A DNA stretch of 60,578 bases from a virus (lineage: Duplodnaviria; Caudoviricetes): positions 1 through 60,578 of the IMG/VR virus record IMGVR_UViG_3300006735_005646; one strand, given 5' to 3'. Of this stretch, positions 2,146 through 21,171 are shown piece by piece. Under the pieces are notes generated by a model. The model made no database searches. It was not told the DNA's origin and saw only the letters and a program-made list of their open reading frames with translations. Within the stretch, counting starts at the first letter, position 1. Each line of letters opens with the position of its first letter. The translations under genes and the position numbers were made by a program.

Positions 2146-3501
2146 ATGAAAACATTTAGAACATTGCTTAACGAAATAATGTCTGTGAATAATTCTGGAT
2201 CAGCAGATGCGGGTACAGATTCCGGTGGTATTGCAAACATAATTAGTTCAGATGGTAAAGGTAGTGATGGTAAAGGAAATGTCATCCCATCGAAACCTAA
2301 TGCTTCTCCGCCTACTGGAAAAATACGAAAAGCAGGTATAGGTTGGGGACTCGACGCAGAACAGTATAGTAATCTTGTTGCACAAGCAAAGGCTTCTGGA
2401 ATCGAGTTTGATGAATCAGATCCTAGCAACATAATGAGAGCAATAAATCAGAAAAAACTTAAAGACTTAGTGCAATCCTCAAAGGAACTGGCTAAGTCAT
2501 TCTCCACATCAATTGATTTTGAAGGAAGAGATGACAGGGGACTCGAAGATTTAGACAAAGCAAAGGCCGACTTTGCTAAACATGCAGAATCGGTTACAGA
2601 CAAAATTCATAAAACCAATTCTGAATTGATGACGAATAGGTGGTCTAAACCAGGCGACTTCAACAAAGATAATGCAGAAGATTATGTTGGATGGGACATC
2701 AAAGATACTGGTGAAGCACAACAGAGAAGTAATCCTTCTGGTGGTCCCGATGAACCTGATGATCCCAATGACGAAGAGCAGGATGAAAACGAAGAGCAGG
2801 ATGAAAACGAAGAGCAGGATGACAATGATGTAGATCCTGATAATGACTTCACTCCTCAACAAAATCAACAGTATCGTCGATGGAGACAGGATCAACTAAA
2901 TCCGAATCAACGACCAGATAAATATGCTCCTAGATTCCCTAACGATCCTACAGAGGGTAATCCTGTTGAAACACATCCACTGGATCCCGGCTACACCATT
3001 CCTCAAAATGCTAAACCCGTTAAACCGAATTATTATCACCGTGACAGAGTTGATCCGAGTCAATTCGTTCCGTGGGATGATCTCAACAATGATCCAAATC
3101 ATCAGCAGCCGGGATATGAAATGCCTAAGCCTAAACCACCGGGATATCAAATAGCACCGCACTGGTGGAGTCCCCTACACGGTAAACCAAAGCCGATAGA
3201 TCCGAATGATCCCGATTTACCCTTCCCAGGCTTACCGTATGTGAACCCGAAGCCGGCGCCCCACAAACCAATCGGGCCCCCGCACAGGCCTTGGTGGGAT
3301 TACATCAGACAGTTCTTTAATCCGTACAACGGACCCGGCGAAGCAACTCCGGGGTTTAGTTCTCCATCCGGGCCCACATGGCCAAACTACAATCAACTTC
3401 CCAACAGGCCGAGGATGCCGTTTTACTTTGGAAAAAATGAAGGAACAATAGTGAAAAAGACTATGAAATCATTCATGGAGTACATTTCAGAAACATCATG
3501 A
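2146..3501 (+). CDS. Pro/Asp-rich low-complexity protein with CTS-like N-terminus (MKTFRTLLNE)
   Basis: ORF 2134..3501 with ATG 2146 after GGAG; acidic repeat followed by a Pro-rich C-half. Confidence 0.75.
   Translation: MKTFRTLLNEIMSVNNSGSADAGTDSGGIANIISSDGKGSDGKGNVIPSKPNASPPTGKIRKAGIGWGLDAEQYSNLVAQAKASGIEFDESDPSNIMRAINQKKLKDLVQSSKELAKSFSTSIDFEGRDDRGLEDLDKAKADFAKHAESVTDKIHKTNSELMTNRWSKPGDFNKDNAEDYVGWDIKDTGEAQQRSNPSGGPDEPDDPNDEEQDENEEQDENEEQDDNDVDPDNDFTPQQNQQYRRWRQDQLNPNQRPDKYAPRFPNDPTEGNPVETHPLDPGYTIPQNAKPVKPNYYHRDRVDPSQFVPWDDLNNDPNHQQPGYEMPKPKPPGYQIAPHWWSPLHGKPKPIDPNDPDLPFPGLPYVNPKPAPHKPIGPPHRPWWDYIRQFFNPYNGPGEATPGFSSPSGPTWPNYNQLPNRPRMPFYFGKNEGTIVKKTMKSFMEYISETS
2771..2824 (+). repeat. 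3x 18-bp tandem repeat (ACGAAGAGCAGGATGAAA) encoding NEEQDE-type units
   Basis: Seen directly; in-frame coding repeat. Confidence 0.9.
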
Positions 3502-4700
3502 AAGGGTTCTTGGAGTTCATCTCGGAAGCAGCGAAGAATGTCCACATGACACATGTTGAGGACTTGGTGTTTGAGGGCAGTAAAAGAGCAGAGGAAGCAG
3601 TTTCATTTTTGGAAGAGATTGCAAAGATGCTCGATGGTAACAGCAAGTCCAGAACAAATGCAACAGTCAAGTGGGACGGTGCGCCTGCAATTGTATGTGG
3701 TATCAATCCAGAGAATGGTAAGTTCTTTGTTGGTTCAAAGAGTGTATTCAACAAGACACCGAAGATTAACTACACCATTTCTGACATACGAAAGAATCAT
3801 AAAGGTGGAGTCGCAGATAAACTGGCAGTAGCATTGAAGTACCTGAAGAAACTTCCCATCAAAGGAATACTCCAAGGTGACATGATGTTTGGACCGGGTG
3901 ATATAAAAACGAAGAACATCAATGGTGAATCACACTACACCTTCGCACCAAATACAATTACATATGCACTACCCGTTGACTCTGATGCCGGTAAAAAAGT
4001 TAACCGGGCGAAGATGGGAATTGTGTTTCACACAACATACACTGGTAGCAGCATGTCTAAACTGTCTGCATCGTTTGGTGCAAACGTAAAGAATCTAAAA
4101 AGAAATAGTTCCGTTTGGGTTGATGATGCAGATTTCAAAGACGTAAGTGGAACAGCAACACTAACAAAGACAGAATCAAGTTCACTCTCCTCCGTACTAT
4201 CTACAGCAAAGGGTCAATTAAAATCAGCAAAATCGTTTTTAGATGAAATTGCAATGAACAAGAAAGTAATTGACAATGTAAATATTTACGCCAACTCTAA
4301 AGTAAGACAAGGTTCAACAACTCTTTCTACCAAGGAATTCATAACATTCATGAATGACAAAATACAGAAAGAAATTGACGGTCTTAAATCTGAAGAGGCA
4401 AAGAAGAGAAGAGAATCAACAAGGGATCAGATGGTAACATATCTAAATACCAAAAATAAAGAACTGGATTCTGTCTTCTCTTTACATGCCTCACTTACAG
4501 AAGCAAAGATAATTCTTGTAAGGAAATTAGAGTCGGTGAAGTCAATTGGAACATTCATTCAAACCTCGGATGGTTTCAAGGTGACTGCACCAGAGGGGTT
4601 CGTTGGTATTGATAAGTATACTAGTAATGCAGTGAAACTTGTTGACCGTTTAGAATTTAGTAAAGCCAACTTCACTGTACCAAAAAACTGGTCTAAGTGA
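3498..4700 (+). CDS. DUF6267-like protein (KxDG ligase/nucleotidyltransferase-like motif) with CTS-like N-terminus
   Basis: KNVHMTHVEDL, TVKWDGAPAIVCG, LQGDMMF, PEGFV and KLVDRLEFS motifs, typical of marine T4-like phages. Confidence 0.8.
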   Translation: MKGFLEFISEAAKNVHMTHVEDLVFEGSKRAEEAVSFLEEIAKMLDGNSKSRTNATVKWDGAPAIVCGINPENGKFFVGSKSVFNKTPKINYTISDIRKNHKGGVADKLAVALKYLKKLPIKGILQGDMMFGPGDIKTKNINGESHYTFAPNTITYALPVDSDAGKKVNRAKMGIVFHTTYTGSSMSKLSASFGANVKNLKRNSSVWVDDADFKDVSGTATLTKTESSSLSSVLSTAKGQLKSAKSFLDEIAMNKKVIDNVNIYANSKVRQGSTTLSTKEFITFMNDKIQKEIDGLKSEEAKKRRESTRDQMVTYLNTKNKELDSVFSLHASLTEAKIILVRKLESVKSIGTFIQTSDGFKVTAPEGFVGIDKYTSNAVKLVDRLEFSKANFTVPKNWSK

Positions 4701-4725
4701 AAGTTGACTGTTGAAGGAGAAAGAT

Positions 4726-5073
4726 ATGAACAAAGACTTAGTAAACAGAAGAAACAGTAAAACATGGGTTAAAATGAACGATAACAGCAAGTCCCATGTA
4801 TGGAGAGGTAAATTTGTTGAAGAACATGGTGGAGAATTTGTAAAAAAAGGTAGGTTCTGGGAGTGGCAAACTATACATAGTAGTGAATCCCAAGAGGTGA
4901 TTGAAAAGACGCCGATGTATGAGTTTAAGGATAATGAAGGTAAAACGCATTTAGTTGATAATCTAATGAAGTTTTGCCGGGAAAACGACTTAAACAAATC
5001 AGCCATCTATAAAGTGATGGGAGGCGAAAGGAAGCACCACAAAGGATTTACTTGCAGGAAGGTTTATAAATAA
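4726..5073 (+). CDS. small protein with homing-endonuclease-type C-terminal DNA-binding module
   Basis: NLMKFCRENDLNKSAIYKV...HHKGF resembles the module at GIY-YIG/HNH C-termini; no catalytic motif; AAGGAG SD. Confidence 0.6.
   Translation: MNKDLVNRRNSKTWVKMNDNSKSHVWRGKFVEEHGGEFVKKGRFWEWQTIHSSESQEVIEKTPMYEFKDNEGKTHLVDNLMKFCRENDLNKSAIYKVMGGERKHHKGFTCRKVYK
5065..5072 (+). promoter_or_regulatory. T4-type late promoter TATAAATA
   Basis: Exact consensus upstream of the 40-aa ORF. Confidence 0.7.
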
Positions 5074-5378: not shown

Positions 5379-8300
5379 ATGAAAAAAATTGTTTTTACAT
5401 TCGGTAGATTCAACCCACCTACTACTGGTCATTACCTACTTGCCACTCGCGTGAAAGAAGAGGCGAGAAAAAGGAATGCTGAATATAGGATTTACGGTAG
5501 CAACACCAAAGATCCAAAGAGAAATCCCCTCTCACCAACAAGCAAATCAAAATTCATGAAGAAGGTTCTGAACGATAGAAACGTCGTGGTGAACAAGGAC
5601 TCTGGTAATCCATATGCAGTGCTTCAGAAATTGAGTGCAGAAGGATATAGTGATGTCACTATGGTAGTGGGTTCCGATAGAGTTCCTGAATTCAAAAGAG
5701 GAATCAAGAAGTATATTGGCAAAAAGGGATACGAGAACATCAAAAATTTTGAAGTGGTATCTGCTGGTGATAGAGATCCAGATGCAGAAGGTGTTGAAGG
5801 TATGTCTGCATCTAAGATGAGAGCAGCGGCAGCAGAGGGAAATATAGATGCGTTTCGGTTGGGAGTCCCATCTCATGTGTCAAGTAAAGATGTGATGGAT
5901 TTGTTTTATGCAGTCCGAAGAGGTATGGGTATCCGAGGAAAGATTGAAGAGTCGTGGTTCAACTATGACGAGTTTGCAGAGTTTGTCAATGAACAATCAG
6001 AGTTGAACGAATTAACACTTCAGGCAAGAAGAAAACTTTCTATGCGTATGAAGAAGACTGCAAAGAAACGTGCTAGGGTTAGAAAACTTCGAGAGAAGAG
6101 AAGAAAAACAAAAGTACAATTGGTTGCAAGAGCAAACAAGCAAGCGATTAAGAAAATTCGCTCAAGGTTTCATAAGGGTAGATCATGGTCTGAAGTTTCA
6201 TTCATGGAAAGAGAAAGAATCAGCGAAAAACTAAAAAAGAAGAAGAAAGCAATTCAAAGAATTTCAAAACGACTCATTCCTGCAATGAACAAAGCAGAGA
6301 AGGAAAGACTAGATAAGGTTAGAAAACGAATGACTAGTAAAGATCCTGTAAAAGCAATCGCACCGACTAACGAACACATCGACATCATGTTTGAAGAATA
6401 CTTGGAGGAGATAGCAGTTCCGAGAGCGAGACCTAGAGACAAAGTTTCTAGTAGAGTTGCGGCACAGGATAAGGTAAATAGAGAAAAGCAAAAAGCACAG
6501 GACAGAGGACTGGATGCTAAGAAGGTAGATGCAGCAAGAAAAAGAGGTGAACGAGCAGACGGTAAAACTGATAATCGTTCTGACAAACAGAAAAAGTTTC
6601 CCAACCTACAACCAACCGATCCTGTAGAAATACAAAGAGGAGATGAGGTTGAGATTGTTCTATTCAAAGATGCCAAAATAGATCAAATCAAATCTTCAAA
6701 ACCAGTAAAACCAGGTCAAGCAAAATCAATTTCAAATAAGCCAGGATTTGTTTGTGGTGAAACAGCACAATCATTGGGTGTCAATTGTGACAAGGTTGCA
6801 CAGGCGCAACAGACAGAAAAAGGACAACAGGGACAGCAAGCACCAGAACAGGAAGTAAATCCAGAACTACAAAAGGCGTCCGATGCACAACAAATTGCTC
6901 AGTCAAAACTTAGCACTGCTCAAGCAAATCAACAACTTGCTGACATGGAAGCACAGCAGCAACAACAAAAAGATGCAAGAGAAGCAGAGTTAGCACAAGC
7001 ATACAAAAACCCATATGCGAAACAATTCGGAATTGAAAGCAAACCCCTACCCAAAGGGAAGAAAGATAAACAAAAGGGAGACACATTCCCCTCTTCTGGA
7101 CACAAGGCGGTAGATGCAGAGTTCGCTCTAGTCGCTGCTGCACATGGTTGTCACGATTTGACTGGTAAAAAAATGAAAGCATGTTTAGATGCTGCGGACA
7201 TAAGTGCAGGAGATCAAAAAATATTAGCACAGAGTGTGACACTAACAGGTGCTGGTAGAAGAATGTGGGATACTCTGGGTAAACTTATACCAGAAAACTT
7301 TGAAGCAAAACACTATGGTAAGGGTGGACCTCCTATCACTTTGTCTGACACTTGGCAAAGAAATAAAGCAGGAGATAAAACACCAAAGACTGATTTGTAT
7401 TGGGAAGATAAAAAGACCGGAGAGTCAATAAGAGCATCAATGAAAATTGGTGATGGACAACTCATGTCTGGTGGTGCAGAAGAATCCATGGCAACACTCG
7501 AAACTGCGATGAACCGTATGCGTGGTTGCAAGGGAGTCGATAAAGACGGACAAGGAACTGATTGCAAACGAACTCCAATGTCAGGTGAAGCGAAAGCAAT
7601 AAAAGCGATTCAATCAATCAAAGAGGACATTGCTAAATCATACGACAGAGATAGTCTTGGTGCGGGTATGGGTCCAACGTCATGGTGGTTGGACGGTGGT
7701 GTCGTAAAAACACCAGGCGATAGAGAACCAGATTGGTGGAAGAAGGACGGATCACCAGGCTCCAAGGGTGTCAAGTGGAAAGATGTAGTTGGTAAACCAC
7801 CAAACAAAGCAGACTTTCCAAACTACAATGAAAAGACAATCGATAGATTGAAGAATGCAAACTCTTCTCATAAGAGGATCATGGGTAATATTGAAAATCT
7901 ATTCGAGGAGAGTGAAGAGTTCAAGAGACATGTAATTTACGAATCATTAACTGGTTGTGGTAAATTCTGTGGTTGTTGTGGTCAGGATGTGTGTAATGAT
8001 TGTCAAGAGAAAGCAATGGCGACTCACATGGTTACTGCTGAGAAAGATGGAACAAAGGCAGCACTCACAGAAATCGGTGGACCGAATAGTCCGTTCGTAA
8101 CTAAACTACTGAAGCAAGTGAACGTATCCGTGCGTCTCAAGAGCAGTCAAAAAATATCCAAAGCAACCGGGAAAGAAGGAAACTATAGTTGGTGGTCTGT
8201 TCTTGGACTCACCACAAGTGGCGGATTCATGGGTGAAGAAAATGTACAGGCATTTCTTGAGTTCAATGGTGATACAGAACATCCAAAAAACCAAGTGAAA

Positions 8301-10010
8301 AAAGCAATGGAGTCTATTGGGGATGATCCACAAAAACTCCTAGAGTTCTTCGGTGCTGAAATTGAAATGGATGTAACACACGGAAATCTAGCAGACACAT
8401 TCGCAGAGAATACATCTGGTAAGCACACTGAGATTGTAATCAACGGAAAGACAACAAGAATTCCAATCGAAAATCCAGAGGATTATAGAGATTACCAGAA
8501 GGAAGCAGAAGAAGGCGAAGACCTAGACGAATCATTCCGTGTGCTGACTGAACCAGACATTCTTGACAGACTGGTAACACAGTTGAGAGATAAAGGAATG
8601 GAAAAAAATAAAGCATACGCAGTCGCCACTTCACAGTTGCAAAAACGTGGTGTTCTTAAAAAGGGAACGAACGACTTGACTACACATGGAGAAAAGAGAG
8701 ACTCGATGGGTGCCGCAGGTAGAGCAAAGGATAGAGCAGCGAAGAAGGATGGTAAGTCTCCGAAGGATTATAACTATAATCCAAGAACAAACATTGCAAC
8801 ACAGAAAGAAGATTGTGGTTGCATAAATGAAGACAACACCGCCGCAATTGCAAAGCAAGTTAAGCAAGCAGTAAAGAAGTATGTGACTGGTACTCCCAGA
8901 GTTCAATCCAAGGGTGGTAAGGTTCGTTTCATTATGCTACGAGCAGACAAAATTGACAACAAACTTCGCAAGATGATTCTTGATGTTGAACATCCAAACG
9001 CAAAGGTTCGTGATAAGAATAATATCTCTTATGGAAACATCAGCGATAGAATTATCAGTGCGGGTGCAGATGTATGGATGGATGCACTTGGGTTGAAAGA
9101 ATCCGTTCAATTGAATGAATGTTGGGACACACATGTTCAACAAGGATATAAAATGAAAGGTGGGAAGAGAGTTCCAAACTGCGTACCAAAAGGTTCTGCA
9201 ACTAAATTTGGAGAGTCAACCACACATGGTATTGGAACATTTGCAAAAATAGACATTCAAGAGGGAGCAACCATAAGTCTATATCTCTTGGACTTGATGG
9301 AAAATACACCCACATACCAACGAACAGACTTCTGTAGATTTACAAATCACTCACACAAAAATGCCAATATAACTCTCGAACGAGTTGATGGTGGTCTTCA
9401 TGCTACAGCAACCAGAGATATTCAGGAAGGAGAGGAGTTCTTCATAGACTACTTCCATGTTCTTGACAATATCGGGACTAACATGAGCATCATTGAAGAT
9501 GTTCTAAGATGGACAGAAGGATATGAAAACCTATACATTCCAGAGGATACAATCCAGTCCTTCGCACATGAATTATCATACTTTGTAAGTATAGGTGATT
9601 GCCCTGAACTGTCCGAGGAGTTCTTGAAAATTCTTCCTGAGTACACAGTATCGGAAGATGAAGATCCGGTGAAGAGAGCAAAAAGGCAAAAAGAATATAA
9701 CGCAAGACCAGAACAAAGAGCAAGAAGAAGTTCAAGAACAAATGAGAGAAACAAGAGAATAAGAAAAGGACAGGTGAAGGTCGGTGACGGGAAGGATATA
9801 GATCACAAGGACGGTAATCCACTAAACAACTCCTCTTCCAATATAAGCATAACATCTGCGAATTACAACAGAGGACGAAATAATAACAAGGGCAGAACCA
9901 ACGAAGAACATGGTGCCGGTGATATGGGAACAAAGGAATTGCTAAAAAAATATCTAAAAAATACACCCCATATGACTATTGATGCTAAGTTCAAGAAAGA
10001 GATGGATTGA
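5379..10010 (+). CDS. 1543-aa multidomain protein: N-terminal cytidyltransferase-like (HxGH) domain, basic helical module, PD-(D/E)XK-like domain, SET domain, C-terminal HNH-like motif
   Basis: FGRFNPPTTGH/VVGSDR/MSASKMR; TPKTD...ASMK; STTHGIGTFA..FTNHS..ATRDIQEGEEFFIDY; DIDHKDGNPLNN..NRGRN. Confidence 0.85.
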   Translation: MKKIVFTFGRFNPPTTGHYLLATRVKEEARKRNAEYRIYGSNTKDPKRNPLSPTSKSKFMKKVLNDRNVVVNKDSGNPYAVLQKLSAEGYSDVTMVVGSDRVPEFKRGIKKYIGKKGYENIKNFEVVSAGDRDPDAEGVEGMSASKMRAAAAEGNIDAFRLGVPSHVSSKDVMDLFYAVRRGMGIRGKIEESWFNYDEFAEFVNEQSELNELTLQARRKLSMRMKKTAKKRARVRKLREKRRKTKVQLVARANKQAIKKIRSRFHKGRSWSEVSFMERERISEKLKKKKKAIQRISKRLIPAMNKAEKERLDKVRKRMTSKDPVKAIAPTNEHIDIMFEEYLEEIAVPRARPRDKVSSRVAAQDKVNREKQKAQDRGLDAKKVDAARKRGERADGKTDNRSDKQKKFPNLQPTDPVEIQRGDEVEIVLFKDAKIDQIKSSKPVKPGQAKSISNKPGFVCGETAQSLGVNCDKVAQAQQTEKGQQGQQAPEQEVNPELQKASDAQQIAQSKLSTAQANQQLADMEAQQQQQKDAREAELAQAYKNPYAKQFGIESKPLPKGKKDKQKGDTFPSSGHKAVDAEFALVAAAHGCHDLTGKKMKACLDAADISAGDQKILAQSVTLTGAGRRMWDTLGKLIPENFEAKHYGKGGPPITLSDTWQRNKAGDKTPKTDLYWEDKKTGESIRASMKIGDGQLMSGGAEESMATLETAMNRMRGCKGVDKDGQGTDCKRTPMSGEAKAIKAIQSIKEDIAKSYDRDSLGAGMGPTSWWLDGGVVKTPGDREPDWWKKDGSPGSKGVKWKDVVGKPPNKADFPNYNEKTIDRLKNANSSHKRIMGNIENLFEESEEFKRHVIYESLTGCGKFCGCCGQDVCNDCQEKAMATHMVTAEKDGTKAALTEIGGPNSPFVTKLLKQVNVSVRLKSSQKISKATGKEGNYSWWSVLGLTTSGGFMGEENVQAFLEFNGDTEHPKNQVKKAMESIGDDPQKLLEFFGAEIEMDVTHGNLADTFAENTSGKHTEIVINGKTTRIPIENPEDYRDYQKEAEEGEDLDESFRVLTEPDILDRLVTQLRDKGMEKNKAYAVATSQLQKRGVLKKGTNDLTTHGEKRDSMGAAGRAKDRAAKKDGKSPKDYNYNPRTNIATQKEDCGCINEDNTAAIAKQVKQAVKKYVTGTPRVQSKGGKVRFIMLRADKIDNKLRKMILDVEHPNAKVRDKNNISYGNISDRIISAGADVWMDALGLKESVQLNECWDTHVQQGYKMKGGKRVPNCVPKGSATKFGESTTHGIGTFAKIDIQEGATISLYLLDLMENTPTYQRTDFCRFTNHSHKNANITLERVDGGLHATATRDIQEGEEFFIDYFHVLDNIGTNMSIIEDVLRWTEGYENLYIPEDTIQSFAHELSYFVSIGDCPELSEEFLKILPEYTVSEDEDPVKRAKRQKEYNARPEQRARRSSRTNERNKRIRKGQVKVGDGKDIDHKDGNPLNNSSSNISITSANYNRGRNNNKGRTNEEHGAGDMGTKELLKKYLKNTPHMTIDAKFKKEMD

Positions 10011-14289: not shown

Positions 14290-14501
14290 ATAAATTAGTT
14301 TTGCTTATGATTTTGTTTTTAACTGGGTGCAGTGATGCGATGCGAATAAAATCAACAACACCAGTGGGAAAAATTCCGCAACAAACGGCAGAACAAACAA
14401 CAGAATCCTTATCTCATAATGGTATGTGGATTACTGTGTGGTTGATTTGTGTTCTTGTTGCTACTGTTCTTGTGTTCAGGACATTCAAAAAAGAATCTTA
14501 G
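14286..14501 (+). CDS. lipoprotein with C-terminal TM (unimolecular spanin-like)
   Basis: Lipobox LTGC plus C-terminal TM MWITVWLICVLVATVLVF. Confidence 0.55.
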   Translation: MNKLVLLMILFLTGCSDAMRIKSTTPVGKIPQQTAEQTTESLSHNGMWITVWLICVLVATVLVFRTFKKES

Positions 14502-15067
14502 AATGTGTATGAGTCAAGTACTTTATCATGCAGGTACTTGCAAATATAATAAGAATCAACAATATCGGAAACAGGGTTATCCACTGTTCCTTTGTCTGGA
14601 GTTATTTCTTGCTTCAGATCGATACCAGTATCAGTTTTAAAGAATTTATGCATCATAGTTTTGTCTGCATTACCTTTACCAGTTGCAAACTTCTTCACTG
14701 TTGTTGGAGGAATAACTTCGAGTGGAACGCCGCTATTGTATATCTTATACTTAAGAACACCAGTGTTCTCTGCGATATGAAAAACTTTACCCTTTGAACC
14801 ATAAGAGTATCCTTCTATTGCGATGTGTTCACATCCTAGAAGGTTATCCATCGCCCAGTCTGCAATGCTTTTATATCTCTGGTATTCACAGTTCCAATCT
14901 TGAAATCTGGAACCATATACATTGGTTAAAAAGAATTCTGCATACTTCTTTGTTTCGGTTAGAAAATAAAACTTACATCTTTCAAATGTAAACGCTTCCT
15001 TTTCTGTCCCCGCAAATACACATATACTTGGACTTCTCATACTGTAGTCTATTCCTGCAATAATCAT
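14498..15067 (-). CDS. RuvC-like (RNase H fold) resolvase/nuclease
   Basis: AGIDYS, IAIEGYS, PTTVKKFATGKGNADK and DIVDSY motifs. Confidence 0.8.
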   Translation of the reverse strand: MIIAGIDYSMRSPSICVFAGTEKEAFTFERCKFYFLTETKKYAEFFLTNVYGSRFQDWNCEYQRYKSIADWAMDNLLGCEHIAIEGYSYGSKGKVFHIAENTGVLKYKIYNSGVPLEVIPPTTVKKFATGKGNADKTMMHKFFKTDTGIDLKQEITPDKGTVDNPVSDIVDSYYICKYLHDKVLDSYTF

Positions 15068-15168: not shown

Positions 15169-15297
15169 CTAATTTCCTTGTATAAATTTTACCAATAGTA
15201 TTCCCGCGACGAATGATGCTATCGCTACAATCGCTCCACTTGGAGTTGAAAGTTGATGCACCTTACTATCTATCCATTGTTTCCAGTAATTGTTCAT
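15169..15297 (-). CDS. 42-aa membrane peptide MNNYWKQWIDSKVHQLSTPSGAIVAIASFVAGILLVKFIQGN
   Basis: Read by hand; GAGG SD; hydrophobic C-half. Confidence 0.5.
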   Translation of the reverse strand: MNNYWKQWIDSKVHQLSTPSGAIVAIASFVAGILLVKFIQGN

Positions 15298-16024
15298 TTT
15301 TTATTTCCTCTATCCAACTTTTATAATATTCAACACTTGCACAAGCGTTCTCAAATATTAGTCCACCAGTCACACTGAAGTTTGCCATGATACCTATGAG
15401 TTTGTTTTCTCTGGTTAGGACTGCACCACCAGAGTCACCGAACCAGATAGATGCCTTTAGTGGGAGCATGACCATGAACTGCGGGTTTGAGATGAGTCTA
15501 CCGTAGTACCAAAAGGTGCCAGAGTTACTGTATCTCTTAATACCATGGCCATGCCCCACTGTAGTAAGAGGCATTCTCTTATAAACTGAGTCGTCAGGTT
15601 CGAGTAATTCTACGGGAGACTCATCTGATGGATGTTCCAAAACTATGATCGCTATATCGTGAAATCCGTAAACGCCGGGAATATGTTCTGTGTAATAAAT
15701 CACCTCCTTGATACAGATTTTATCACCGTCCGTTTCTGTCCAAACCAAATCTTCCTTCCCTTCTGTAACATGTGCAGCAGTAAGAACCAATGTTGGTTCA
15801 ATTAAAACACCAGTACCAATGAGTTTGTTGTTTTCTGAATAGTTAATTGAACCAACAAACTGATATGGATCAGGCCACAAATCTCTGAGGAGATATGTGA
15901 ACGGACCCGGTGGTTTCGGGGTTTCTTTTATTTCTATTTTTTGTGGCGGAGGAGTTATGGTAGTTGCTGTGCAACTTGTTAAACATAGTAAGGACGCTAA
16001 AACATATAAAATTGTCTTTCTCAT
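15266..16024 (-). CDS. trypsin-like (S1) serine protease, lipoprotein
   Basis: Lipobox LTSC; VLTAAH, HDIAII and GDSGG catalytic triad motifs. Confidence 0.9.
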   Translation of the reverse strand: MRKTILYVLASLLCLTSCTATTITPPPQKIEIKETPKPPGPFTYLLRDLWPDPYQFVGSINYSENNKLIGTGVLIEPTLVLTAAHVTEGKEDLVWTETDGDKICIKEVIYYTEHIPGVYGFHDIAIIVLEHPSDESPVELLEPDDSVYKRMPLTTVGHGHGIKRYSNSGTFWYYGRLISNPQFMVMLPLKASIWFGDSGGAVLTRENKLIGIMANFSVTGGLIFENACASVEYYKSWIEEIKNEQLLETMDR

Positions 16025-16061
16025 TCCATATATTATGTATAAGAGAAATGGCTAATAATAA

Positions 16062-16144: not shown

Positions 16145-17557
16145 CTACTTTTTCGAGGATCTAACATCTGGTTTACCAGGCATGTCTTGTCTATTAGTTA
16201 CAGTTTTTTTACCACCAGGTCCAACGGCAGTAATTTCATGTCCAATTTTAGTTGCGGGATTTAGTTTTATCTTTACTGCTTCTTTGATTGCATTCTTTTT
16301 ATTTGATTTGAAACCATTTGTTCCGAAAACATTGTTATTGATTGCAGGGATACCAACTCCTGCACCTTTCATGTTGTATTTTTGTAATTCTTTTGGGCAT
16401 TGGTAGTCTTCGCCTAATCTTTCCTTCGCTTTCATAAGACCTTTTGCTCGTCTGTTTGTGCTTGGTTTGTGCTTACCTTGATCTGTGTAAAGGTCTCTTG
16501 TTATTTGAGTTCTTGCTTTAGTTGCATAACTTCGGAGAGTTTTTTTATCTAATTCGTTAAGTGAACCTTCACCCAACTTTAGTTTTATGTTTGCTTTTTT
16601 CTGTTGTAATTGGCGAACTCTGTTTAGTTTTTGGGTTGCTTGTCTCTCAGTTTTTCCACGGCTTATAACTTTATCACCCTTGCTGACATCATACTTATCG
16701 AATCCGTGTCTGTCTTGCTTACCTGTATTTTGTGCCTTATACTTTCCATACACCATACTGCTTGCTTCACCAAGTTTCTTGACTGCCCTTTGAATTCCAC
16801 TTTGTCTCTTTTTTGTTATTCGTTCTGTTTTGCGGTAATCTCGTATTGCGGTGTTCTTTGCTCTTGCCGCGAGTTGCCTGACATTTCTTCTAGTTGGATT
16901 AGGTGCAGCGGCATTCATTGTATCATCAGCATCTTTAAATCTTTGTCCGGCGCGTCCTGATTCGTACCCCGATCTTTTAATGCTACCAGCAGCCTTATTG
17001 ATATAACTTCCGAGTGTGGACTTCTTCAACTCATCTAGATTCTCACCTTCTTCTGGCTCATGGTCTTCATGCACCTCACTTACAAGAATTTTAAGACTAT
17101 CGGTGGGAACTCCCTTTTCAACACCATGTTCAAACATGACATCGTACCAAGCAATTTGTCCATTCTCATCTGGCGTTGCATGTTTAGAATGAATGCATTG
17201 TCCTTCGCCATATTGTGTGTGTTCTACATGAGTGGCACAATCATGCTTTCCTTTTTTCTTTTTCTTCTCTTCAAGTTCAACAGATTCCTTCACAATGTCT
17301 TCAGCCTCATTCTCACCGGGTTGTTTCTTATTCTTGGTATCGCCTGAGATTTCCATGTCTCTAGCAGGTATATTCTTCGTAGTACCATCTTCAAATTTAA
17401 CCCTGTAGAACTCGTCACCTTCCGTCTCACCGTCTTGAGACACTTCTTTTCCAACTACCCCTCTCTTACCATTCACGATTACAGTTTTACCCTTCATGTG
17501 GTCTTCATTGAGGTTAATGATAGATTCTAACAGGTTTTGAAATTGCTTAGTTTCCAT
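16145..17557 (-). CDS. modular internal head protein with multiple X-X-E sites
   Basis: KHDCATHVEH..WYDVMFEHG module; repeated LDELKKSTLGSY/LNELDKKTLRSY modules. Confidence 0.75.
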   Translation of the reverse strand: METKQFQNLLESIINLNEDHMKGKTVIVNGKRGVVGKEVSQDGETEGDEFYRVKFEDGTTKNIPARDMEISGDTKNKKQPGENEAEDIVKESVELEEKKKKKGKHDCATHVEHTQYGEGQCIHSKHATPDENGQIAWYDVMFEHGVEKGVPTDSLKILVSEVHEDHEPEEGENLDELKKSTLGSYINKAAGSIKRSGYESGRAGQRFKDADDTMNAAAPNPTRRNVRQLAARAKNTAIRDYRKTERITKKRQSGIQRAVKKLGEASSMVYGKYKAQNTGKQDRHGFDKYDVSKGDKVISRGKTERQATQKLNRVRQLQQKKANIKLKLGEGSLNELDKKTLRSYATKARTQITRDLYTDQGKHKPSTNRRAKGLMKAKERLGEDYQCPKELQKYNMKGAGVGIPAINNNVFGTNGFKSNKKNAIKEAVKIKLNPATKIGHEITAVGPGGKKTVTNRQDMPGKPDVRSSKK

Positions 17558-17589
17558 GAGATTCTCCTATAGTGTATGCTATATGTATA

Positions 17590-17623
17590 AAAAACAACCC
17601 CCCGTCCGAGGACAGGGGGGTTG
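17590..17623 (-). terminator. intrinsic terminator after the porin gene
   Basis: CAACCCCCC..GGGGGGTTG stem with a T-run on the minus strand. Confidence 0.8.
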
Positions 17624-17651
17624 CGTGAAGTGCCGGGATAAGTCCCGTATA

Positions 17652-18830
17652 TCAGAAACTAACGCTAAGTTGTGTTCTGAGTAGATACTGACCATTGGAG
17701 TCGCCTGCATTCCAACCGGAACGATAGAGATTCCATTCAGTACCAATAGCATCGAATGCATAACCAAGAGTAGTAGTCCAACGGACGTACTTATTGATGT
17801 CAACATTCGCACCAACCTCAAGGACGTTTAGATCAGAATCGGAAACACCAAGTTTACCGTACTGATAATTAACGAAACCTGTGAGGTTATCGGTGCATTG
17901 GTATGCAACTTCGGCGTTGAAACCGTAGTTCTTACCATATCCACCTACTGCATAATCAGCAGAAACCCATGAGACTTGTGCATTTAGAGGACCGTTGCTA
18001 TAACCAAAGTCAACGGTATAAGTGCCATAATCTTCGAGTTCTGACTGGTATGCGTATGCGGCTCCCAACTGGAAACCACCACCAAAGTCAACGTCACCAC
18101 GGACGCTGATACCATAATCATTATCTACAATGAATACATTCTCTGTACCGAATCCATCATTGTATGAAACAGAGAGGTCCAACCAGTCAAAGTCCTTGCT
18201 GAACTGGACACCCTGTGATCTTCCTTGACCAAACGTAGTAGCGAGAATGGTGTATTCACCTTCAACATTATCCAATGGTGAATCGGTGAAGTCCTTATAG
18301 AACGCAGTGACAAACTGTCCTGCTTGGAAGTCAACACCCCAACCCAAGTCCATTGTGGTATAGGCGTCAACGAGTTCCATAGTGCCATTTGTATAGTCAC
18401 TAAACTCACCACTTACATAATAACCAATCTTTCCTAGAATCTCACCCGAAACTTCGAGACGAGCATAGGGAATACTGAACTGATTATTTTCAGCGACACC
18501 ACCATCGTTGTTATAACTCCAACGAGTAATGGCAAAACCACCCACGTTAACAGTGACGGGTTGTGCATCCGCCATCATCATTGTGCGTGCATCAGCATCA
18601 GCCATGACATCTTGTACCATAGCCTTTACTTCTTCGCTTCGACGAGTTTCCAACCAACTTGGTTCTTGGTTCGCATCCAATGTTGCGATCTTTGCTTCTG
18701 CTGCATCGAGACGAGCCTGTAGATCCTCATATGAAGGACCGTCAGCAAGTGCAGGTGCAGCGAATGATGCTACAACAATTGCAGCAGCAAGACCACCGTA
18801 CATCATCCACTTTTTCTTTGAAATATTCAT
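17652..18830 (-). CDS. outer-membrane beta-barrel porin (OprO/P-like, Phycisphaerae-type)
   Basis: Signal peptide (ALA), coiled-coil WLETRRSEEVKAMVQDVMADADAR, amphipathic strands, C-terminal QLSVSF with terminal Phe. Confidence 0.8.
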   Translation of the reverse strand: MNISKKKWMMYGGLAAAIVVASFAAPALADGPSYEDLQARLDAAEAKIATLDANQEPSWLETRRSEEVKAMVQDVMADADARTMMMADAQPVTVNVGGFAITRWSYNNDGGVAENNQFSIPYARLEVSGEILGKIGYYVSGEFSDYTNGTMELVDAYTTMDLGWGVDFQAGQFVTAFYKDFTDSPLDNVEGEYTILATTFGQGRSQGVQFSKDFDWLDLSVSYNDGFGTENVFIVDNDYGISVRGDVDFGGGFQLGAAYAYQSELEDYGTYTVDFGYSNGPLNAQVSWVSADYAVGGYGKNYGFNAEVAYQCTDNLTGFVNYQYGKLGVSDSDLNVLEVGANVDINKYVRWTTTLGYAFDAIGTEWNLYRSGWNAGDSNGQYLLRTQLSVSF

Positions 18831-18860
18831 AGGATTACCTCCTTGAATCGAATGAACGAC

Positions 18861-19055
18861 TCAGGTTCCTACTGCGTTTGTTGCAGCGTGCCAAAGAGAC
18901 TGGACTGCATCTGCAACCCAAACAACACCACCCCATGAATATGGAAGAAGTGCAAGAGTGATTAGCATACTACGGCAGATGCCAACCTTACCAAGAGTTT
19001 TTGTAACAACGTCGTTTTCGCATCCCACGACAGGACACTTACTTGTATTAGCCAT
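18861..19055 (-). CDS. 64-aa Cys-containing membrane peptide co-transcribed with the porin
   Basis: AAGGAG SD; hydrophobic segment. Confidence 0.65.
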   Translation of the reverse strand: MANTSKCPVVGCENDVVTKTLGKVGICRSMLITLALLPYSWGGVVWVADAVQSLWHAATNAVGT

Positions 19056-19197
19056 ATTATTTCTCCTTATAAGAAAATGAAACCCCGGCTAAAGGGTTGG
19101 TGCTGAATGCACCATGAGTCAACTCCGACTCAGTAATGTGTCACTTATATAGTGACTTAGTATTCTCAACAAACCTTGAAGAGATAATTAACCTCCC

Positions 19198-19225
19198 ATT
19201 ATAGTTCTATAACGGGACATGTCAA
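19198..19225 (-). promoter_or_regulatory. consensus sigma70 promoter TTGACA-N16-TATAAT with overlapping palindrome
   Basis: Both hexamers are perfect consensus. Confidence 0.8.
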
Positions 19226-19242
19226 ACTAAAATTAATATTTT

Positions 19243-21171
19243 TTATTTCGTTAAATCGACGATTTCACATGAACCACCGCTACAAGCGAGGGTTTGAGAA
19301 CCAGATGTGTTATCTTCTTTCTCATAATCTGATAATTTTTCCCAATCCACACCTGTTGGCATCTTTTTAAGAAGTTCCTCATAGTCCTTCTTTGTGCAGT
19401 CTTGGTATGGTGCTTGTCTATAATTATGATCCGAATGTGGTAGGAATGAAACGCCACTCACTTCATCGAAGTGCTTGTAAACCCATGCACCTACTTCCAT
19501 CCACTCATGTTCCTTCACAGTTACAGTAACACTTGGTTTATGTTCACACCAATGTCTTTGGTATAGAAGCCAATGTTCAAGTTGTTCGATTGCTGTCATT
19601 TCTGTTCTCACAACACAACCATCTGGTGCCTTTACTGGGAAAGAAAATACCATAGTATGTTCTGGTTTCATTACATCTGGTTCCGCAGGGAATCCCTTAT
19701 CGATCATAAATTTACACAATGGATCTTTAACATCTGCACGAACTGTACGAATGTAATATTCAGAGTGTCGAGCATGAATACCTGAAGAAGCATCAACCAA
19801 TTGTGAGACAGTACCACTCGGTTTTACACAGGTGATCGCGGCCGATTGGTTGATATTAAACTTCTTCGCAAGTTGCTTGTTCGTTTCCACCGCAGTTTCA
19901 CGAAGAGTCTTCAGTGTCTTCTCAAGAACTTCTGTTCCTTTTCTACCATTCATGAGATCATTGTCCATAATACCAGTAAGCGAAACACCAAGAAGTCTTT
20001 CTTCTTCGCAGTTGTTCTTCCACTCACTTGAAAGATAACGGAAGTTTGTAAGAGTAGATTGCCATGTTCCAAGAATAGTGGCAAGTCGAACCTTCTCCTT
20101 CAGAGTTTCAACCGTGTCTTCTTTACGAACCACCACTTCGGTAAGATTACAGAACTCTCTATCACGAAGAAGAATCTCGGAACAAGGATTGCAACCAAAA
20201 TCATAATTAGGATCACGGCGATCTGAAAGTTTCTCTACGGTCTTCTTAGCAGCATCACGATTGAAAATACCACGTTCACCACTCTTGGACTTATAGAGTG
20301 AAACCCACTCGTCCATAAACGTACCAATCTCTGGTTTTTCTTTGTATGCTACTGAGTTGTTCGACAATGCTCGCTGTGGGTTTTCATGCCACCACTGACC
20401 AGTTTTCGCTTCCCGCATTCGTTCATCCGTAAGAGACGATAACGAAATAAGGGCACTTCTTCGTACTCCCCCGACAACGACAACTTCCGCAATCTTACAG
20501 ATGATATCATGGCATTCGATAGAGGTGAGTTTTCGTCCAGAAGCCTTCTTATAGGTATCCACCGTGAATTTGAACAGATCATCCAGTGGTTCTGGTCCCG
20601 AACTTCTACCACCGAAAGTTTTAAGTCGTTCCCCCGCAGGACGGACTTTCGATACATCCCATTGAGGAATTTGACCACTAATGAGTAACGATGTAAGTTC
20701 CTTGTAGGCTTTCGCCCAACCCAACTTGCTATCCTGTACCACAATTGTTGTATCACTGTCTTCAAACTCCTCTGCAATCGTAGCCAACTTTCCTAAGAAA
20801 TCTCTTTCGACACTGAAACCAACACCAGTACCACACATGAGAATGTAAAGAATTTCATCAAAGGAACGGACTCTTCCTGCACTCACATACGCACAGTTGT
20901 ATCCTGCAACATGATCACGCTTCAGTGCTTCTCCTGCGGTCATCAATGCTCTCATCGAAGGCATGACATTTAAATCAATGATTGCACTTTGCAATTCTTC
21001 TCTTTCTTTCTTAGATACTTTGTAGTTCTGACTCTCTTCTAGGTGTTCTACAAAAAAATCGAAGTAGCGAGAAACAGTTTCTTCCCATGTTTCTCTTCTA
21101 CCCTTCTCGTCTATCCAACGAGAATATCGGCTCAAATGTATAAAATCTTGAAAGGGTGTTGGTAATGACAT
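19243..21171 (-). CDS. nrdJ: class II (B12-dependent) ribonucleotide reductase
   Basis: MPSMRAL, GCNPCSEI, KPSGTVSQL and C-terminal CSGGSC; no beta subunit nearby. Confidence 0.9.
   Translation of the reverse strand: MSLPTPFQDFIHLSRYSRWIDEKGRRETWEETVSRYFDFFVEHLEESQNYKVSKKEREELQSAIIDLNVMPSMRALMTAGEALKRDHVAGYNCAYVSAGRVRSFDEILYILMCGTGVGFSVERDFLGKLATIAEEFEDSDTTIVVQDSKLGWAKAYKELTSLLISGQIPQWDVSKVRPAGERLKTFGGRSSGPEPLDDLFKFTVDTYKKASGRKLTSIECHDIICKIAEVVVVGGVRRSALISLSSLTDERMREAKTGQWWHENPQRALSNNSVAYKEKPEIGTFMDEWVSLYKSKSGERGIFNRDAAKKTVEKLSDRRDPNYDFGCNPCSEILLRDREFCNLTEVVVRKEDTVETLKEKVRLATILGTWQSTLTNFRYLSSEWKNNCEEERLLGVSLTGIMDNDLMNGRKGTEVLEKTLKTLRETAVETNKQLAKKFNINQSAAITCVKPSGTVSQLVDASSGIHARHSEYYIRTVRADVKDPLCKFMIDKGFPAEPDVMKPEHTMVFSFPVKAPDGCVVRTEMTAIEQLEHWLLYQRHWCEHKPSVTVTVKEHEWMEVGAWVYKHFDEVSGVSFLPHSDHNYRQAPYQDCTKKDYEELLKKMPTGVDWEKLSDYEKEDNTSGSQTLACSGGSCEIVDLTK

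Follow-up and report, generated by a model that had tools for sequence, protein, structure and literature searches.

A shuffled two-gene cassette of an uncultured marine T4-like phage encodes a porin and a small membrane protein: a candidate phage-installed solute channel

We analyzed a two-gene unit in the IMG/VR virus record IMGVR_UViG_3300006735_005646. The whole record, 60,578 bases with an estimated completeness of 33%, is called the window here. Two open reading frames (ORFs) on the minus strand together fill positions 17652-19055. The first encodes a porin of 392 amino acids (17652..18830), which was described with the ORF list, Pfam, AlphaFold2 and Foldseek; the second encodes a small protein of 64 amino acids (18861..19055), described with the ORF list and an alignment of its relatives (A6). 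On the same strand, a predicted sigma-70-type promoter and a structured leader RNA precede the small gene, and a predicted intrinsic terminator follows the porin gene.

The porin is predicted to consist of a signal peptide (residues 1-29), a helical stalk (residues 34-84) and a 16-strand barrel (residues 95-391), and it ends with a terminal Phe. Judged by eye, the first residues, MNISKKKWMMYGGLAAAIVVASFAAPALA/DGPS, look like a signal peptide for Sec export, and the C-terminal end looks like a beta-signal for membrane insertion. The motif WLETRRSEEVKAMVQDVMADADAR lies at residues 59-82, and the C-terminal end of the protein is GWNAGDSNGQYLLRTQLSVSF. These two motifs had been quoted in an earlier reading of the DNA (hereafter the sequence-only reading) and are indeed present in the 392-residue translation. 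The Pfam family Porin_O_P (PF07396) matched with 33.3 bits (cut-off 20.9), but this match covers only residues 107-177, that is, profile positions 16-92 of 370. Porin_4 scored 26.2 bits over nearly the whole protein, just short of its cut-off of 27. AlphaFold2, run with a 15-sequence alignment, gave a model with a mean predicted local distance difference test score of 74.9, in which the 16 strands span residues 95-391; the model also contains a signal-peptide helix and, at low confidence, helices at residues 34-53 and 59-84. When this monomer model was compared with known structures by Foldseek, it matched classical 16-strand trimeric porins with template modelling (TM) scores of 0.55-0.70. 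The matches included Omp-Pst1, PorB, Omp38, OmpK36, OmpF and Omp32, and OprP (2o4v) came at rank 9. Among 34 viral porin sequences, the polar motifs GQF..F, GQGRSQG and DGF are invariant, as are R103 and R244, and R124 and R204 are at least 90% conserved; all four arginines are invariant in the 15-sequence alignment.

The small protein has Cys residues near its N-terminus and one hydrophobic segment, RSMLITLALLPYSWGGVVW. Judging by its predicted topology, it is probably a single-pass inner-membrane protein. Its relatives show strong conservation: residues D15, G25, R28, S29, L36, P38, W41, G43, V44, W46 and W55 are invariant in alignment A6. No family for it was found in Pfam, PHROGs or NCBIfam, and the ESM Atlas gave no usable match; among metagenome proteins there are at least 579 clusters of it. 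For one of these (P0157) the recorded contig has 281,941 bases, which exceeds the length expected of such a phage. The small ORF was present in 76 of 80 loci centred on the porin, and three of the four misses were cut by a contig end. Conversely, in 80 loci centred on the small ORF the porin adjoined in 73 (64 with the small gene first, 9 with the porin first). The seven loci lacking the porin comprised four in which the small gene stood alone beside a PAP2-family gene on the opposite strand, one in which it preceded another beta-barrel-like protein, and two elsewhere. No homologue of the small protein was found beside cellular porins (95 loci; best E 0.059). A complex prediction with the mature porin and the small protein (alignments A7 and A6) gave a score of 0.00, to which we attach no weight either way.

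Other neighbours of the small gene were seen in related phages. In locus L354 (positions 2812-4913, plus strand), and also in L437, it is followed by a 261-residue beta-barrel-like protein ending in RFGLRFSF and then by a 320-residue PiT-like permease. The permease of L354 matched the PiT phosphate transporter 6l85 of the PDB with E 2.9e-5 and the Pfam family PHO4 only with E 0.014. A PAP2-superfamily phosphatase (30.8 bits, cut-off 27.2) lies on the opposite strand beside the small gene or after the porin (L303:6618-7214, minus strand; L304, L396, L397, L398 and L381). In relatives, either gene thus at times occupies the slot of the cassette. The PiT-like and PAP2 genes were each present in 3 of the 80 porin-centred loci, which amounts to a faint phosphate or envelope theme and no more.

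A candidate early promoter, TTGACA-16-TATAAT, lies at 19198..19225 (minus strand) and is identical to the sigma-70 consensus at 12 of 12 positions. The perfect sequence occurs once in the 60.6-kb window, compared to an expectation of 0.05. Of 52 non-redundant related loci, 38 keep at least 10 of the 12 positions and 21 keep all of them; a score of 10 is reached by about 8% of shuffled sequences. A 10-bp hairpin (TCCCGTTATAG...CTATAATGGGA; 19194-19217, minus strand) covers the promoter spacer and the -10 box. At the other end, a sequence pattern typical of intrinsic terminators lies at 17589..17619 (minus strand): a G/C-rich hairpin of 9 bp (CCCCCCTGTCC/GGACGGGGGG, 17619..17598), followed by a T run. 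By eye, most of the related loci printed out show a G/C-rich hairpin and a T run 3' of the porin as well. The sequence-only reading had given the porin a strong promoter and a terminator of its own, and these predictions support it.

The promoter and the small ORF are about 135 bases apart, and a structured 5' leader RNA with three covarying hairpins (19053..19155, minus strand) was delineated in this interval with a covariance model (R1). The model scored 89 bits on the window leader and matched 36 of 58 sources, one match apiece, each ending at the ATG of the small ORF; in three of five large viral records the leader was found once per genome. In these scans the leader preceded no other operon, and it is thus specific to the cassette. 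Thirteen of 15 base pairs changed on both sides, and 98.9% of the cells were paired in the model-fitted alignment, which leans towards the model; the structure was defined by hand. None of 500 shuffles equalled the observed covariation, and slid controls dropped to 28-51% paired. The minimum free energy had a z-score of -3.3. RNAalifold, applied to a plain MAFFT alignment, recovered just one of the hairpins. Rfam contained no match to the leader at gathering level. The leader also contains a CTA.ATAAG box, which was rejected as a late promoter since the window has 3 such boxes and 1.65 would be expected.

The loop of the last hairpin could also pair with the start of the small gene. In the window, this loop, UUAGCC, is complementary to UGGCUAA in the start region, and most sequences show the same complementarity between UAGCC in the loop and UGGCUA around the start codon. 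Both partners are altered in L001 and L092, to UAGGC and UGCCUA, respectively. As this co-change is a single compensatory event, we treat the loop-start pseudoknot as a hypothesis. A control with mismatched pairs was uninformative, since most sequences have an identical start.

Both genes evolve under constraint. For the porin, the ratio of nonsynonymous to synonymous substitution rates (dN/dS) was 0.06-0.16 in four pairs with 64-79% identity and 0.28 in the near-identical pair with L001; for the small ORF it was 0.11-0.26 against relatives. These values are well below 1 in both cases, indicating that the porin and the small ORF are real, constrained genes. It might be argued that the porin is non-functional, either a mis-assembled cellular fragment or a decaying passenger, as its G+C content (GC) of 44.6% exceeds the window mean of 37.5%. 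This is contradicted by the dN/dS values, by the intact frame with all porin hallmarks and by dozens of independent viral contigs, some as long as 157 kb, that carry the cassette at the identical place. Moreover, 14 sequencing runs contain at least half of the sampled words of the stretch, and the 20 entries with any part of it span 15 studies. We therefore give this explanation almost no credence. That the porin is carried by a phage, as the sequence-only reading stated, is borne out by the IMG/VR virus record itself, with its genes for a T4-type DNA polymerase, UvsX, primase, helicase and tail fibre.

The unit occupies a defined slot. On one side, upstream, lies a gene for a class II (B12-type) ribonucleotide reductase (19243..21171, minus strand; Pfam and locus comparison), and on the other side a gene for a RuvC-like resolvase (14498..15067, minus strand; family match and locus comparison). 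In between, a gene for a trypsin-like serine protease (15266..16024, minus strand) often follows the cassette, as it does in 42 of 80 loci, and a gene for a Lys-rich protein of 470 amino acids (16145..17557, minus strand) is a variable insert between cassette and protease, with a relative in 13 of 80 loci. The N-terminus of the protease, LCLTSC, resembles a lipoprotein signal by eye, so that it may be another envelope-directed phage protein. Across the 80 porin-centred loci, helicase, primase, ThyX and reductase genes come first, followed by the small ORF, the porin, in some loci the Lys-rich gene, and then protease and RuvC.

Among the 80 nearest relatives of the reductase (71-95% identity), the porin was present in 14 and absent in 51, and the remaining 15 had too little downstream DNA; hence, 14 of 65 assessable close relatives carry it. 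The identities of reductase and porin are uncoupled: compared with the window, L095 has 95% for the reductase and 48% for the porin, L084 has 72% and 79%, and L001 has 29% and 99.5%. Porin alleles go down to 34-48% identity between phages whose reductases are 81-95% identical. At the nucleotide level, L001 matches the window at 96% over 19113..17589 and at 93% over 16030..15291; the Lys-rich gene is missing from it, and its upstream region is unrelated. The right border of the shared stretch is just past the terminator; the left border is inside the leader, not at the promoter. Thus, the unit behaves as an accessory cassette that is shuffled among relatives but always found in one hyperplastic slot between the reductase and RuvC genes. 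Two reductase types, about 29-30% identical, were also seen in one position of otherwise related phages (for example, L001, L092, L100 and L108 with one type, L095 and L142 with the other).

The porin belongs to a large clade in viruses. A search of metagenome proteins gave 180 clusters, and the 120 listed have 38-98% identity to it; in the ESM Atlas, the closest cluster consists to 100% of viruses. IMG/VR, scanned with a profile, yielded 105 relatives, of which the 80 retained have 34-99% identity and lie on contigs of up to 157 kb. When every ORF of the collected loci was scored with a single profile, viral members obtained 335-655 bits and cellular ones at most 211 bits. A tblastn search of 50,697 GenBank phage records with the porin gave no match, and no member of the viral clade appeared in a scan of 185,579 species genomes (one genome each) with two conserved peptide patterns, a scan that very divergent relatives in other phyla could escape. 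Three of three other viral-clade porins had no Pfam match at E <= 0.01, which may be why the family is unannotated.

Cellular relatives do exist at a greater distance. A scan of the species genomes with the single protein gave nothing; an alignment-based scan gave cellular matches, the best with 22-39% identity over their best segments. Eighty-five distinct cellular ORFs match at least 300 of the 384 profile positions. Of these, 68 are labelled Planctomycetota, 8 come from genomes sampled in that phylum, and 9 have another label or none; the Planctomycetota labels are mostly Phycisphaerae/Phycisphaerales, with some Isosphaeraceae and Planctomycetia. In the phylum of a Phycisphaerales genome, 77 of 301 sampled genomes matched at E <= 1e-3 (best 191 bits), and in a larger sample about 55 of 401 matched at E <= 1e-8 (counted by hand). 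In a control phylum centred on a genome labelled Alphaproteobacteria, this was the case for 5 of 401 at 1e-8, the best score beyond the centre genome being 52 bits. The Phycisphaerae-type likeness proposed in the sequence-only reading is thus confirmed: the closest cellular relatives are Planctomycetota porins, mostly of Phycisphaerae, and share the N- and C-terminal motifs quoted there. Planctomycete genomes also contain tandem arrays of 3 to 6 such porin genes (L083, L006, L019, L022 and L054). Contigs of metagenome-assembled genomes labelled Limnohabitans, Bifidobacterium and Klebsiella (L042/L175, L020 and L075) bear planctomycete-type porins too; the 'Limnohabitans' genome (G008) groups in the phylum of the Phycisphaerales genome, and such labels look wrong, or the bins mixed.

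In order to place the viral porins, we computed a quick maximum-likelihood tree from 11 of 65 distinct viral sequences (62% clustering), 24 of 85 cellular sequences (45% clustering) and 8 outgroup porins. The viral clade (97 in the Shimodaira-Hasegawa-like approximate likelihood ratio test, SH-aLRT) was sister to the planctomycete clade (97) and not nested in it. The root was set with these 8 outgroup porins, hand-picked from 22 partial non-planctomycete matches (Gemmatimonadota, Bacteroidota and Acidobacteriota), support is SH-aLRT only, and a long-branch artefact could mask a nested position. The nearest cellular kin are planctomycete, as anticipated, and the viral clade stands beside them, not inside. 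Since the window porin is just 27% identical to a Phycisphaerales porin and 25% to an Isosphaeraceae porin, and since the clades are sisters, the similarity argues for an old shared origin and not for recent capture from a host. Kinship with planctomycete porins is thus supported; recent capture from a host is not. The placement fits an old acquisition from a planctomycete lineage or a relative of it.

These results bear on the idea that the porin was acquired from a planctomycete host as an OprO/P-type channel for phosphate or anions, which would mark the carriers as planctomycete phages that boost phosphate uptake. The PF07396 match above its cut-off, the scores of 49-66 bits that planctomycete homologues reach on this profile, the planctomycete identity of the nearest cellular relatives and the occasional PiT-like and PAP2 neighbours in related phages agree with it. 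Apart from the low identity and the sister placement in the quick tree, however, the scan of 185,579 species genomes brought up no viral-clade member, and the three other viral members lack a Pfam match. A search of the PDB with the 15-sequence porin profile found no porin at E <= 1, including the OprP and OprO chains. The barrel is acidic, with 13 K+R (7 Arg and 6 Lys) and 38 D+E, a net charge of -25 (family median -20, 34 sequences). The promoter is a plain sigma-70 consensus, and no Pho box was seen by eye in the printed locus sequence. The phages also differ in GC from the planctomycete loci, which is weak evidence. Because of the acidic barrel, the missing OprP/OprO sequence match and a fold that is equally like that of general porins, phosphate selectivity is unsupported, and so is the phosphate or anion uptake suggested in the sequence-only reading. 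Capture of a phosphate porin from a planctomycete host is hence unlikely.

The carrier itself gives little hint of its host. Its DNA polymerase is T4-type, with 53% identity to those of Synechococcus phages (myoviruses), and its DUF6267 protein is 47% identical to the counterpart in Pelagibacter phage HTVC008M. Other T4-type replication genes encode a UvsX-like recombinase, a primase, a DnaB-like helicase and an exonuclease; ThyX, the class II ribonucleotide reductase and a collagen-like tail fibre are also encoded. The fibre is the only virion gene in this 33%-complete piece, the remaining ones being outside it. By these similarities, the contig is identified as a fragment of an uncultured marine T4-like myovirus from the clade around cyanomyoviruses and pelagimyoviruses. 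No closer relative was found among the 50,697 GenBank phage records. The photosystem gene psbA (PF00124) was not found in five of five large porin-bearing viral records, each 70-87% complete, so there is no sign of cyanophage identity in these incomplete records. A planctomycete host, as inferred in the sequence-only reading, found no independent support: no transfer RNA genes were detected in the window, and its GC of 37.5% lies 15-30 points below the 52-68% of 13 planctomycete loci. This gap is weak evidence, as T4-like phages often have a lower GC than their hosts. A large uncultured marine T4-like lineage that infects Planctomycetota akin to Phycisphaerae, in which the stalked porin and a tail-anchored partner would form a trans-envelope device for uptake or gatekeeping with its synthesis set by the pseudoknot, is a speculative scheme to which we give little chance.

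Two further observations concern the window. A long run of sugar-nucleotide and glycan genes at 35001-58047 (minus strand), with a GC of just 31-37%, encodes a GDP-mannose 4,6-dehydratase, several NAD-dependent epimerases, two GT10 fucosyltransferase-like proteins, a glycosyltransferase, a kinase-like protein and an amine-oxidase-like protein, which is a large polysaccharide-synthesis block for a phage. At 5379-10010 (plus strand), an ORF of 1543 amino acids combines an N-terminal cytidylyltransferase with a SET match at about residue 1310 and an HNH-like match at about residue 1470, an unusual fusion.

Taken as a whole, the promoter, the three-hairpin leader, the 64-residue membrane protein, the stalked 16-strand porin and the terminator make up a self-contained early-type cassette, which may provide a phage-installed solute channel. 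According to this model, the unit would be transcribed by host RNA polymerase soon after infection, and the leader would tune translation of the small gene. The porin would then be exported via Sec and inserted into the outer membrane by the host Bam machinery, where it would act as an additional, phage-specified solute channel and increase the supply of the infected cell; the small protein would work with it from the inner membrane. We favor an added solute channel because the polar barrel motifs are invariant across the viral clade; the occasional PiT-like or PAP2 gene in the slot of relatives also speaks for it. We put the chance that this reading is correct at about even.

Several points weigh against it. 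No transporter adjoins the cassette in the window, and in 7 of 80 loci the small gene has no porin beside it. The evidence points to no particular substrate, and the strongly acidic barrel is not what would be expected for an anion channel. The promoter, the terminator, the export and the membrane insertion are all predictions. RNA-library contigs covered the porin at 95-99% identity in four of four metatranscriptome runs compared; this is weak, since the runs were selected with the window stretch and contigs cannot prove transcription, and we gave no weight to the uncovered parts around the cassette. Finally, presence/absence polymorphism and fast allele turnover suit a gene for host interaction or exclusion at least as well as a metabolic gene.

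The last point leads to superinfection exclusion or receptor masking. Here, the early porin, with or without the small protein, would replace, mix with or cover the receptor porin, so that later phages, or progeny released nearby, could not adsorb or inject. The predicted unit is early, strong and autonomous; it is accessory in close relatives (14 of 65), its porin alleles are 34-48% identical where the reductases are 81-95% identical, and its partner is a small membrane protein without a known family. T4 Imm and Sp and T5 Llp are early membrane proteins of analogous purpose. Exclusion fits the turnover pattern nearly as well as an added channel does. On the other hand, conservation falls on polar motifs of the barrel, as is typical where a channel is functional, no homology to known exclusion proteins was found, the small protein having no PHROG or Pfam match (the PADLOC defence library was not searched), and mixing with host porin monomers needs a host having this porin family, which is unproven. 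We regard exclusion as possible but rather doubtful.

If the solute-channel function is true, the permeability of the outer membrane is remodelled by some marine T4-like phages during infection, which would matter for the flow of nutrients through infected cells and for competition between phages. The clade was seen in more than 100 viral contigs and in many marine metagenomes, and most members have no database annotation. Its planctomycete kinship is the only current host lead for a lineage without a cultured member. The leader, whose last loop is complementary to the start-codon region, is a candidate for a compact element of translational control.

Considering known systems, the closest likeness in gene organization is to the promoter-early stem-loop (PeSL) cassettes in the hyperplastic regions of T4-type phages, described by Arbiol et al. 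2010 (PMC2839356) and Comeau et al. 2014 (PMC4122927). Both begin with a strong early promoter of sigma-70-like sequence and end with a stem-loop terminator rich in G/C (GGGG...CCCC). Both carry non-essential cargo between core genes, and close relatives may have the cassette, lack it or have another in its place, the regulatory elements marking the borders of exchange. The PeSL cargo is a single orphan ORF, whereas here it is a two-gene envelope module with a structured leader. The hosts here would be marine bacteria, and recombination at the elements is deduced from one comparison, that with L001.

Among cellular proteins, the planctomycete stalked porins (loci L005 and L008) align over their full length with 27% and 25% identity (E 1e-26 and 3e-23) and share the motifs W..R..E...LV.DVLADAD.R, GQF and C-terminal G(Q/E)...R.Q....F as well as the Porin_O_P match. 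They differ in length, with 340-410 residues in the viral and mostly 390-570 (a few about 760) in the cellular proteins, the viral porins form a separate clade (97 SH-aLRT), and the small partner gene lies beside none of 95 cellular loci. OprP and OprO of Pseudomonas aeruginosa (PF07396) are not known to have an N-terminal stalk, and an arginine ladder and a lysine cluster line their pore, giving anion and phosphate selectivity. The window porin resembles them in its 16-strand fold (TM 0.60/0.58 to 2o4v and 0.57/0.52 to 4rjw) and in the PF07396 match above cut-off. This match, however, spans only 71 residues, the barrel is acidic, and the fold does not favor OprP/OprO, as OmpF, OmpC, PorB and Omp32 match the model as well or better.

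For the leader, the Rfam family freshwater-2 (RF02980) was considered and rejected. It likewise has three short hairpins, the last loop with UAG, followed by AAGGAGAAA and AUG, and its model aligns to the leaders of the window, L001 and L121 with 28.6, 27.9 and 26.5 bits, ending at the ATG of the small ORF. These scores are below the gathering score of 49.9, and the gene context differs: in 120 pattern-selected viral loci, 107 sites precede unrelated MGRP proteins, and neither the porin nor the small ORF was found in the first 80 of these loci. The proteins following such sites with AAGGAG and ATG (IMG/VR loci L179-L298) have 30-440 residues and all begin with MGRP(L/I/V), except for one with MARG. 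Since the sites precede proteins with this start, the freshwater-2 motif seems to be the leader of one phage gene family.

Porins have been found in phages before. The lambdoid phage PA-2 carries the Lc porin. In viruses of oxygen-depleted waters, an OmpL-like porin follows glnK-amtB, as reported by Gazitua et al. 2020 (PMC8115048). With these, the window porin shares the nature of a phage-carried outer-membrane beta-barrel channel, read as altering envelope permeability or surface; it differs in family and gene context, and its own clade is large, confined to viruses and accompanied by a constant partner gene and leader. We found no description of this porin family in the literature, supplementary tables being outside the search. 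Phage-borne porins and shuffled early cassettes are each already known singly; what is new is not the idea of a phage porin but a virus-only porin clade that travels with one small partner gene and a structured leader of its own.

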